From Patescibacteria group bacterium (lineage in GTDB: Bacteria > Patescibacteriota > Minisyncoccia > Moranbacterales > UBA1568): 64,000 bases of DNA. The DNA lies in contig JBBTWT010000007.1 of assembly GCA_038078615.1 (NCBI GenBank), forward strand, positions 1,060-65,059, in the 5' to 3' direction. Shown here piece by piece: positions 16,718 through 19,318 of the stretch. Each line of letters begins with the position of its first letter. Position 1 is the stretch's first letter. Under the pieces are notes generated by a model. The model saw nothing but the letters and a program-made list of their open reading frames with translations, was not told the DNA's origin and did no database searches. A program made the translations under genes and the position numbers.

Positions 16718-19318
16718 ATGCCAAAGAATATCGCGCGGAAAAATGCGTCTGACAAATCCGGACCATCGGAGTGGATCGTGGTCAGAGGCGCGCGGACGCA
16801 CAATCTGAAGGACATCACGGTCGAGATGCCCCGGAACAAGATGGTGGTGTTCACCGGGCTTTCCGGCTCGGGCAAGTCATCGCTCGCCTTCGATACCATC
16901 TTCGCCGAGGGACAGCGCCGCTACGTCGAATCGCTGTCCGCCTACGCGCGGCAGTTCCTGAACACGATGCAGAAGCCGGACGTGGATGAGATTGTCGGTC
17001 TCTCACCGGCCATCTCCATTGATCAGAAGTCCGCCAGCCGCAATCCGCGCTCGACCGTCGCGACGGTGACGGAAATCTATGATTATCTGCGCGTCCTGTA
17101 CGCGCGTCTCGGCCGGCCGCACTGTCTCCTCTGCGGGAGGGAGATAGAGAAGCTGTCGCCGGAAGAGATGCTCGGCATCGTTTCGGAGAAAGTGAAGCAG
17201 GCGCTATCGGACGCGAAGAACAAGAAGAAACGCCTGCTCATCACGGCGCCGGTCGTCCGCGGACGCAAGGGGGAATACTACCAGCTCCTGTACAATGCCC
17301 TCTCCCGCGGTTTCGCGGACATCCTCCTCGACGGGGAGCGCAAGAGCCTGCGCGAGCAGATCATCCTTTCCAAAAACAAGAAGCACGATATCGATTTCAT
17401 CGTGGACGAATTGCCGCTGTATGAATTCGAGAAATTCCCCGCGGTCTCCGAGGAGCGCCTGTCGGAAGCGGTAGAGCGCGCGCTCGTCGAGAGCGATGGG
17501 CTGGTGACGGTGCGTATCGGCAAGGAGAATTTTCTCCTGTCCGCCAAGTTCGCCTGTCCCTACGACGGTTTCTCGTATCCGGAAGTGGAGCCGCGGCTGT
17601 TCTCGTTCAATTCGCCGTACGGAGCCTGCGCCGCGTGCAACGGTCTCGGCACGAAGCATTTTTTCGGCGATGATCCGTGCGAGGTATGCCATGGATCGCG
17701 CCTGCGCGAAGAGGCGCTCCACGTGAAGATCGGCGGGCGTAACATCGTCGAGGTGACATCGATGATGACGGAAGACGCGCAGAAATTCTTCGATGGTCTG
17801 AAACTGACGGCGCGGGAACGGCAGATCGCCGCGGTGGTACTGCGCGAGGTCGGCGCACGGCTGCGATTCCTCCTCAATGTCGGTCTCACCTATCTCACGC
17901 TCGATCGGCGCGCCAATACGCTCTCCGGCGGCGAGGCGCAGCGTATCCGTCTGGCGAGCCAGCTCGGGTCGCAGCTGGTGGGAGCGCTTTATGTTCTCGA
18001 CGAGCCGACGATCGGCCTGCATCAGCGCGACAACGACCGCCTGATCGAGACGCTCAAGGCCCTGCGCGATCTCGGCAACACCATCATCATCGTCGAGCAT
18101 GACGAGGATACGATCTATGCTTCAGATTATCTCGTCGATATCGGTCCGGGTGCCGGCGTGCATGGCGGCGAGATCGTCGTGTCCGGCTACCTCGACGATC
18201 TGCTCACGGCCGAAAGAACTCCGCCAGCCGGCGGATCCCAGTCACTCACGCTCGCGTATCTGCGCGGCGAAGAGAAGATCGCCGTTCCGGAAAAGCGCCG
18301 CAGCAAGGAGAAGGGGATGCTGAAAGTCCGCGGCGGCAACCTGTTCAACATCAGGGATATGAATGTCGACATCCCGCTCGGGCGCCTCAACGTGATCACC
18401 GGGGTCTCCGGCTCGGGAAAATCCACCCTGCTCTACGAAATCATCCATAAGAATCTGGAGGCCCGTTTCGACCGGAGATACAAGTCGAACGAGGTGTTTC
18501 ACTGCGCGTCATTCGCCGGATCGGAATATCTCTCGCGCACCGTACTCATCGACCAGAGTCCCATCGGTCGCACGCCGCGCTCCAACCCGGCCACTTATAC
18601 CGGCGCCTGGACGCATATCCGCGATCTGTTCGCCGCATCCGAGGAAGCGCGGGTACGCGGATGGAAAGCCGGACGCTTCTCGTTCAATCGTCCGGGTGGC
18701 CGCTGCGAGACCTGCGAGGGAAACGGATTCATCGCGGTCGAGATGCATTTCTTGCCGACGGTGTACGTGCCGTGCGACGTGTGCGGCGGCAGGCGTTTCA
18801 CCAAGGAAACCCTCGAAGTGAGGTACAAGCACAAGAATATCTACGAGGTGCTCGAGATGACGATCGAGGAAGCCTTCTCGTTCTTCGCCGATATTCCGGC
18901 CATCGCGGACCGCTTGAAAACATTGAACGAAGTGGGGCTCGGGTATCTGAAGCTCGGTCAGTCGGCGACGACGCTCTCCGGCGGCGAGGCGCAGCGCGTG
19001 AAGATCTCCTCGGAACTGTATCGCAAGCTCTATGAGCGCACGATCTATCTCCTCGATGAGCCGACCATCGGACTCCACTATGAGGATGTGAAGAAACTGA
19101 TCGAGATTCTCGAGACGCTCGTCGCCAAGGGCAACACGGTCATCGTCATCGAGCACAATATGGACCTTATCAAGAGTGCCGACTACATCATCGATATCGG
19201 ACCCGAGGGCGGCCAGGGCGGCGGCACAATCGTCGCAACCGGCACGCCGGAAGAAGTGGCTCAGATGCCGCGTTCATACACCGGACAGTACCTGAAACGC
19301 GCCTTGAAAAAGAAGTAG
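16718..19318 (+). CDS. uvrA: UvrA paralog lacking the insertion domain
   Basis: Two ABC modules ([31 protein letters not shown] twice) and Zn modules. Only about 9 residues (TKHFFGDDP) lie between CNGLG and CEVCHGSRL, where canonical UvrA has about 110. Start set at ATG 16718 (MPKNIARK) downstream of the promoter. Confidence 0.9.

Follow-up and report, generated by a model that had tools for sequence, protein, structure and literature searches.

We analysed a 64,000 nt window of DNA from a Patescibacteria group bacterium (assembly GCA_038078615.1, contig JBBTWT010000007.1, positions 1,060 to 65,059 of the forward strand), in which genes of nucleotide excision repair (NER) and others lie in the order uvrB, SPFH/Band-7, YdjC-like, uvrA-1, uvrC, uvrA-2. 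uvrA-1 (16718..19318, + strand) is an intact open reading frame (ORF) of 866 residues, starting MPKNIARK, whose product has the UvrB-binding domain and lacks the insertion domain (ID) of canonical UvrA. uvrA-2 (22246..25044, + strand) encodes a full-length protein of 932 residues that contains both the UvrB-interaction domain (Pfam PF17760) and the DNA-binding or insertion domain (PF17755), and aligns end to end with Geobacillus UvrA (PDB: 2r6f).

A UvrA without an insertion domain

A phmmer comparison with PDB sequences matches UvrA-1 to 2r6f with E = 0 in two pieces, residues 18-313 aligning with chain positions 22-303 and residues 314-864 with positions 417-957; the ~113 residues of 2r6f left without a counterpart are the ID. 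In E. coli UvrA numbering the gap covers residues ~291-402 (~112 residues, from the alignment). The junction lies in zinc module 2 (17627..17689, + strand; C304-x2-C307 ... C321-x2-C324), from which the ~110-residue ID of canonical UvrA emerges. Here 9 residues (TKHFFGDDP) separate CAACNGLG from CEVCHGSRL, giving a 13-residue loop between the CxxC pairs, and UvrA-1 does not have the ID inserted in zinc module 2 that is characteristic of class I UvrAs. Pfam searches of the protein find PF17760 (72.5 bits) and give no match to PF17755. The AlphaFold2 model of UvrA-1 has a mean predicted local distance difference test score (pLDDT) of 82.7 and a predicted template modelling score of 0.75, with pLDDT of 77-88 over the junction residues 301-320. 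An earlier sequence-only reading of this DNA had claimed that this UvrA copy lacks the roughly 110-residue ID, with 9 residues between the two motifs. The motif spacing is confirmed by direct reading, and the loss by the split alignment to 2r6f, the gap in E. coli numbering, the absence of PF17755 and the confidence of the model. We therefore rejected an ID that is present and too diverged to see, as there is room only for the 13-residue loop, PF17755 is not matched and the model is confident at this point.

The remainder of the protein has the features expected of a UvrA. The UvrB-binding domain (17216..17518, + strand; residues 167-267 by PF17760) includes R247 and E253, the equivalents of E. 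coli R216 and E222 at the UvrB interface (PMC3025350). This class I feature is shared by the 75 ID-less sequences from the Candidate Phyla Radiation (CPR) used for all residue counts below, with R216 kept in 75/75 and E222 in 72/75. Both ABC ATPase modules typical of the UvrA family are present, with K53 and K568 corresponding to the E. coli Walker A residues K37 and K646, LSGGEAQR occurring twice and the DEPT and IGLH motifs invariant. Three zinc modules, also a family feature, are predicted from their ligands: C136, C139, C280 and D283 in Zn1; C304, C307, C321 and C324 in Zn2; and C663, C666, C686 and C689, all four invariant, in Zn3, the C-terminal module with its β-hairpin (18704..18784, + strand). 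The fourth Zn1 ligand is Asp instead of Cys (CPxD; 17555-17566 of the window) in 70 of the 75 ID-less sequences (loci L001-L080), where UvrA-2 and E. coli UvrA have CxxC. It had also been claimed that both copies in the window keep the ABC modules, the zinc modules and a UvrB-binding segment, which holds (PF17760 in both, together with the motifs and Cys ligands) with the qualification of this Asp in UvrA-1.

Upstream of Zn3 lie the signature-II DNA-binding arginines R635, R645, R647 and R653, kept in 65-75 of the 75 sequences. In ATP-binding domain I, the ‘wedge’ residues Y76...F80 (SAYARQF; 16943..16957, + strand), supported by N298 of the FSFN motif, are invariant in the alignment, as is N298 itself, and correspond to Y62, F66 and N270 of C. 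thermocellum UvrA (PMC12796330; the numbering is alignment-derived). The best PDB match of the UvrA-1 model is the class I UvrA 3uwx_A, from a UvrA-UvrB complex, with a template modelling (TM) score of 0.86, compared with 0.70 for class II UvrA 2vf7 and 0.66 for Ecm16.

Conservation and distribution of the ID-less form

Taking one genome per GTDB species, we recovered 80 related loci and inspected the flanks of each gene to ±10 kb, which amount to 1.12 Mb in total. UvrA-1 is matched at every one of the 80 loci, with 65-87% identity, by one high-scoring segment pair that runs through the junction without a break, so the ID-less form was found in 80/80 of the related, Paceibacteria-type CPR species loci recovered. 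The replacement loop is itself conserved, with the pattern C-x2-C-x-G-L-G-[TS]-[KR]-x-[FL]-[FG]-x3-4-C-x2-C in 79/80. Homologs of 861-862 residues cover UvrA-1 over 100%, and the best 120 UvrA-1-like protein clusters are ~860 residues long, 78-90% identical, without PF17755 and, where named, from Candidatus Moranbacteria or Moraniibacteriota. A domain-length classifier, based on the distances that separate the FSFN motif from the N-terminal part of nucleotide-binding domain I (NBD-I) on one side and from the C-terminal part of NBD-I on the other (149/134 in E. coli UvrA, 160/22 in UvrA-1 and 150/125 in UvrA-2), scores 78/79 loci and 119/120 protein clusters as having a UvrB-binding domain but no ID. 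Purifying selection on UvrA-1 is strong (dN/dS 0.05-0.14), with values of 0.074, 0.046 and 0.144 against the relatives at L001, L002 and L004, respectively. Since the compact junction is kept across 80 genomes (79/80) and in 119/120 clusters, and dN/dS is this low, we rejected a chance deletion, an assembly artefact or a pseudogene as its explanation.

The titles of the loci name Moraniibacteriota, Paceibacteria/Paceibacterota, Kaiser-, Adler-, Nomura-, Zambryskii- and Vogelbacteria, Minisyncoccia and ‘Parcubacteria group’. Many metagenome bins (third party annotation records; L002, L003, L078 and many more) that hold this uvrA go under the titles ‘uncultured Bdellovibrionales’ or ‘uncultured Candidatus Saccharibacteria’, and a single protein cluster bears the name ‘Undibacterium sp.’; such labels look generic or wrong and are unfit for mapping the distribution.

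Relation to canonical UvrA and to the full-length paralog

Several comparisons indicate that the ID-less copy is, at the level of sequence, the closer of the two to canonical UvrA, and the full-length copy a divergent paralog. UvrA-1 passes the cut-offs of both family models, scoring 1239.9 with the NCBIfam UvrA equivalog NF001503 (cut-off 1147) and 1176.3 with TIGR00630 (729.8), while UvrA-2 reaches 1201.3 with NF001503, below UvrA-1 despite having 66 more residues. Over 716 core columns, UvrA-1 is 60% identical to 54 canonical stand-alone UvrAs and UvrA-2 is 55% identical to the same set; the two copies share 50% with each other (~46% over the whole proteins). In neighbour-joining trees on corrected p-distances (643 core columns, 220 units and 200 bootstraps; 716 columns, 274 units and 100 bootstraps), bootstrap support for the CPR ID-less clade is 100% and its stem is short; its place is within the canonical class I group, the one containing E. 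coli, in 137/200 and 80/100 bootstraps. The UvrA-2 clade is likewise supported at 100%, on a long stem (0.35-0.38). Its position is unsupported, all deeper nodes having bootstraps of 1-9%, and these trees gave no supported placement that would separate horizontal transfer from an ancient paralog as the origin of UvrA-2. A phylogeny of both paralogs, suggested with the sequence-only reading as a check, thus placed UvrA-1 and left UvrA-2 without a supported position.

Key residues, in E. coli numbering, show the same division. K37, K646, G502, R216, E222, R712, R722, R724 and R730 are kept in UvrA-1 and in 65-75 of its 75 CPR orthologs; R712, R722, R724 and R730 are the arginines that were mutated together in a DNA-binding-defective control (PMC3025350). 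The UvrA-2 family carries G502K, E222Q, R722E, R724E and R730H, and keeps R712, with basic residues at the neighbouring positions 723 and 725. Five of the seven residues R216, E222, R712, R722, R724, R730 and G502 are therefore altered in UvrA-2 and none in UvrA-1. These substitutions, of which R722E, R724E and R730H change charge, are shared by ~40 Moranbacteria orthologs.

The ID of UvrA-2 (23128..23427, + strand; residues 295-394, PF17755 at 75.1 bits) is 87.6% identical to that of the ortholog at L001, conserved like the remainder of the protein (88.4%), and dN/dS against this ortholog is 0.057. The match of UvrA-2 to PF17760 is weaker than that of UvrA-1 (43.7 against 72.5 bits). Homologs of UvrA-2 are 67-92% identical, ~932 residues long, contain PF17755 and all come from Moranbacteria-type sources, many of them on contigs equal in length to ones that hold a UvrA-1 homolog; UvrA-2 is lineage-restricted, seen only in Moranbacteria. 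The suggestion that the ID-less copy is the ‘second’, accessory paralog with a distinct role is contradicted by the family scores, the identities, the 80/100 bootstrap placement, the retained residues and the conserved uvrB-uvrA-uvrC cluster described below. Because UvrA-1 is conserved and canonical, and UvrA-2 lineage-restricted and long-branched, the full-length copy, or the two acting as a pair, is a more plausible bearer of a distinct role than the ID-less one.

Comparison with class I, engineered and class II UvrAs

UvrA-1 resembles the canonical class I proteins (E. coli; Geobacillus 2R6F/3UWX; T. maritima 3PIH; M. tuberculosis 3ZQJ/9GA2-5; C. thermocellum 9GXK and related entries) in its two NBDs, three zinc modules, UvrB-binding domain, signature-II arginines, wedge, Zn3 hairpin and predicted fold (TM 0.76-0.86), and in being encoded with uvrB and uvrC. 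It differs in that the whole ID (PF17755, ~112 residues) is replaced by the 13-residue loop, and in the Asp ligand of Zn1.

The closest experimental parallel is E. coli UvrA d290-400 (Manelyte et al. 2010, PMC3025350), whose boundaries are nearly equal to the natural gap of UvrA-1 at ~291-402, the remainder being intact; an ID deletion of Geobacillus UvrA has also been made (cited in PMC3025350). The E. coli variant incised a short damaged duplex like wild-type, acted more slowly on plasmid DNA because it discriminated damage less well; it kept Mfd-dependent repair and lost global NER efficiency, resulting in an enhanced template-strand bias (PMC3025350). Both deletions were, however, made in the laboratory, in proteins shaped by evolution with an ID in place, while UvrA-1 is natural and selected, has a conserved loop and occurs in the genomes of 80 CPR species. 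Wagner et al. in 2011 reportedly found the E. coli ID to be dispensable for damage discrimination, yet to stabilise UvrA on DNA.

Class II UvrAs (D. radiodurans UvrA2 2VF7; DrrC; Ecm16 7SH1) also lack one of the two domains inserted in NBD-I. In UvrA-1 the situation is inverted, as the UvrB-binding domain and zinc module 1 are retained and the ID is missing, while class II proteins as defined in the literature retain the ID, which they need for DNA binding (PMC9328131, PMC10192343). Indeed, Ecm16 without its ID neither binds DNA nor protects cells (PMC10192343). UvrA-1 does not group with units lacking the UvrB-binding domain in the neighbour-joining tree, and its TM scores to class II structures (0.66-0.70) are below the 0.86 to class I. 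On these grounds we rejected its assignment to class II, in agreement with the sequence-only reading, which had argued that it is not a classical class II protein; that is borne out by the retained UvrB-binding domain and zinc module 1.

The UvrA classes found in the literature are class I and class II (IIa/IIb), and no characterised class with the architecture of UvrA-1 turned up in the literature searched. Full-text searching likewise gave no account of a natural ID-less UvrA, or of ID-less halves of fused UvrAs, though a passing earlier mention is possible. The natural ID-less UvrA thus appears to be undescribed in the searchable literature.

ID-less units in fused double UvrAs

In the window, uvrA-1 and uvrA-2 do not form a fused double UvrA: each is an ORF of its own, and the 2.9 kb that separates them holds uvrC. 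A search at the level of 50%-identity representatives was, by comparison, dominated by double-length UvrA fusions of ~1,600-2,300 residues, annotated ‘excinuclease ABC subunit A’; NCBIfam NF001885 is a model of 1,809 positions for one such family. Among 150 representatives, sequence inspection and the classifier identified 43 units positive for the UvrB-binding domain (B) and negative for the ID (I), nearly all of them fusion halves. There are 15 fusions of the full-length/ID-less type (B+I+/B+I-), 4 of the ID-less/full-length type (B+I-/B+I+), 1 with both halves ID-less and several that are N-terminally truncated. The ID-less unit is C-terminal in P0242, P0244, P0258, P0259 and P0261, N-terminal in P0271, P0304 and P0376, and present in both halves of P0287 (~1,600-1,900 residues); the sole stand-alone ID-less representative of this fusion-dominated set, P0351, belongs to the CPR clade. 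Examples come from Fibrobacterales (MDB9744133.1) and Planctomycetota (RME03298.1, MEW6747171.1), and a homolog search with the ID-less half of P0242, which returned mostly partial fusions and canonical UvrAs, adds Myxococcota, Binatia and several Pseudomonadota metagenome-assembled genomes.

Many of these proteins therefore hold one unit of the UvrA-1 type paired with a full-length unit, mirroring the Moranbacteria gene pair. They differ in being single polypeptides, and in that the ID-less half often lacks the UvrB-interface arginine that UvrA-1 keeps: in full-length/ID-less fusions it is present in 100% of ID-bearing halves and 46% of ID-less halves. At positions 722/724/730, the same type of fusion (n=13) has on average 1.38/3 basic residues in the ID-bearing half and 2.46/3 in the ID-less half, compared with 2.33/3 and 2.38/3 in the halves of two-ID fusions (n=24). 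The Moranbacteria pair differs in the same direction, with 0/3 in UvrA-2 and 3/3 in UvrA-1. These fusion statistics ignore shared ancestry and are suggestive only. A single origin for all ID-less units is unsupported, and because the CPR clade in our trees does not take in the fused ID-less halves, their sequences point to loss of the ID on more than one occasion.

The uvr gene cluster

uvrB (9643..11697, + strand) encodes 684 residues with the Pfam domains UvrB, UvrB_inter, Helicase_C and UVR, and uvrC (20712..22157, + strand) encodes 481 residues with GIY-YIG, UVR and RNase-H-like endonuclease domains (TIGR00194 score 288, cut-off 285.45). The claim that uvrA-1 is encoded among uvrB, uvrC and a second uvrA is upheld by Pfam, with the addition that the gene at 11738-13672 encodes an SPFH/Band-7 protein of 644 residues (Pfam) and is not a uvr gene. 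Among related loci with enough flanking sequence, 59/65 have uvrB upstream and 61/67 have uvrC downstream, in each case on the same strand, and 47/58 have both. Action of UvrA-1 with UvrB and UvrC in NER is predicted from this genomic association.

Across the 1.12 Mb of flanks, a second, ID-containing uvrA was found only at the Moraniibacteriota locus L001. Relatives at 87% and 80% identity keep the order uvrB ... uvrA-1 ... uvrC-uvrA-2, and the uvrC-uvrA-2 adjacency persists where 5.5 kb of other genes parts uvrA-1 from uvrC; at the Moranbacteria loci inspected, uvrA-2 invariably comes straight after uvrC. Paceibacteria-type CPR therefore have in common a uvrB-uvrA(ID-less)-uvrC cluster, to which Moranbacteria add a divergent full-length uvrA attached to uvrC. 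No mfd gene was found in the window or in the inspected flanks of the two UvrA-2-bearing relatives.

UvrC ends right after its RNase-H-like endonuclease domain, without the C-terminal helix-hairpin-helix DNA-binding domain. This short UvrC and the ID-less UvrA together suggest that the NER set as a whole has been streamlined at the level of domains, and loss of the ID fits such streamlining of CPR genomes. The uvrC matches in related loci are likewise short, at ~1.2-1.3 kb.

Proposed role of UvrA-1

We consider it probable that UvrA-1 is the class I ortholog of this lineage and, with no ID clamp, its main sensor of damage in NER. Clean loss of the ID at both stalks would have preceded the divergence of the sampled Paceibacteria-type CPR lineages and left a compact zinc module 2. 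In the mechanism we envisage, a UvrA-1 dimer would form, bind DNA through the patch of signature-II arginines and the Zn3 hairpin, and probe duplex stability with the Y76/F80 wedge in an ATP-dependent manner. UvrB would then be recruited through the intact UvrB-binding domain, and the lesion passed to UvrB and on to UvrC, both encoded flanking uvrA-1. What would be lost is the ID clamp, which in E. coli serves mainly for discrimination against excess undamaged DNA; the cost of weaker discrimination should scale with the amount of undamaged DNA, and would therefore be smaller in sub-megabase CPR genomes. Three things here are inferred: NER activity of UvrA-1, a homodimeric state in the majority of these organisms, and a small genome as the condition under which loss of the ID could be tolerated. 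UvrA-2, full-length and divergent, would supplement or partner UvrA-1 in Moranbacteria.

The literature divides on the role of the ID. Genta et al. 2025 place the IDs at the centre of how UvrA clamps and melts DNA, flips bases and hands over to UvrB, with one acting as ‘recognition ID’ and the other as ‘support ID’ (PMC11985968), and if so an ID-less sensor may be substantially impaired. The C. thermocellum study finds an ATP-driven ‘wedge’ in the ATPase core to be central and leaves the role of the ID open (PMC12796330). Besides the former, several points weigh against UvrA-1 as the principal sensor. The NER role of UvrA-1 and its relatives is predicted from sequence, a model and analogy. The ID-bearing paralog is kept throughout Moranbacteria, which suggests ID function is still valuable there. 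Our view of the genes extends to ±10 kb only, and a full-length uvrA may lie elsewhere in non-Moranbacteria genomes. Finally, the trees are neighbour-joining on corrected p-distances and not maximum likelihood, and the non-CPR sample is skewed to fused double UvrAs.

In Moranbacteria, UvrA-1 and UvrA-2 could instead form an asymmetric heterodimer with a single ID, in which UvrA-1 would provide the core DNA-binding surface and UvrA-2 the only ID clamp, as the ‘recognition ID’. The two genes are conserved together there, uvrA-2 directly after uvrC, and their differences are complementary: UvrA-1 lacks the ID and has R722, R724, R730, G502 and E222, where UvrA-2 has the ID and E, E, H, K and Q. 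The pairing of one ID-bearing and one ID-less unit in fusions of other phyla (15 + 4 among the 150 representatives), the trend in their basic residues, in the same direction as in the Moranbacteria pair, and the division of labour between ‘recognition’ and ‘support’ IDs (PMC11985968) are all consistent with such an arrangement. Yet no adjacent partner exists at the other Paceibacteria-type loci, so UvrA-1 probably functions alone there, and both proteins keep the ATPase motifs and R216, such that each could form a competent homodimer. As the proposal is read from residue patterns, and the fusion statistics carry the caveat of shared ancestry, we offer it tentatively, as a possibility some way behind that of UvrA-1 as the main sensor. 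An obligate or preferred heterodimer with one ID and one signature-II patch, a solution that would have evolved independently as fusions in Planctomycetota, Fibrobacterales and other phyla, seems to us similarly doubtful, if conceivable.

An unlikely arrangement is that of two homodimers with divided labour, UvrA-1 serving mainly Mfd-directed transcription-coupled repair and UvrA-2 global-genome or lesion-specific recognition. E. coli d290-400 would be a precedent, in that it loses global NER efficiency and keeps transcription-coupled repair (PMC3025350), and UvrA-2 does retain a conserved ID. It is UvrA-2 and not UvrA-1, however, that has the altered DNA-binding patch, G502K and the weaker UvrB domain; no mfd gene is present in the window or inspected flanks; and at most loci, which have no second uvrA nearby, UvrA-1 would need to perform global repair too. 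Still far less credible is UvrA-1 as a decaying or non-NER relic, or as a class II-like drug-resistance or DNA-binding factor independent of UvrB and UvrC. While a DNA-contacting domain has been lost, and the failure of ID-less Ecm16 to bind DNA or protect cells (PMC10192343) might be taken to favour this, dN/dS of 0.05-0.14 and 65-87% identity across 80 species, the position of the gene between uvrB and uvrC and its grouping with class I argue otherwise, and we regard a relic or class II-like role as effectively excluded.

UvrA-1 bears on the active debate over whether the IDs (PMC11985968) or the ATP-driven wedge (PMC12796330) are central to UvrA. The 80 related CPR species carry a UvrA with the ID absent and the wedge, core DNA patch and UvrB-binding domain retained, in effect a natural separation-of-function variant. 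Such proteins represent a minimal-sensor view of UvrA, would allow the wedge mechanism to be studied without the ID and offer a natural test of the need for the ID in excision repair. The combination of full-length and ID-less UvrA, as gene pairs or as fusions, is moreover a recurring, unrecognised architecture that may reflect functional asymmetry in the UvrA dimer. Were the heterodimer to prove true, damage sensing by UvrA would be intrinsically asymmetric, one recognition ID would be enough, and evolution would have hard-wired this asymmetry more than once.

Other genes of the locus

Between uvrA-1 and uvrC, an ORF of 191 residues (19370-19945) encodes a predicted small membrane protein whose ends both carry hydrophobic segments. 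Pfam and NCBIfam gave no match for it, and blastn and tblastx found none in the equivalent spacer of L001, the closest relative, or at any other locus. We rejected it as a stand-alone ID acting in trans, given its predicted membrane nature and the lack of a match to any family or in the related loci.

Downstream of uvrA-2, at 25099-27394 of the window, follow a conserved unannotated protein of ~310-330 residues and a T2SSF protein (type II secretion / type IV pilus platform), in the same order as in L001, L082 and L083. Pilin-like genes (N_methyl) lie further downstream.

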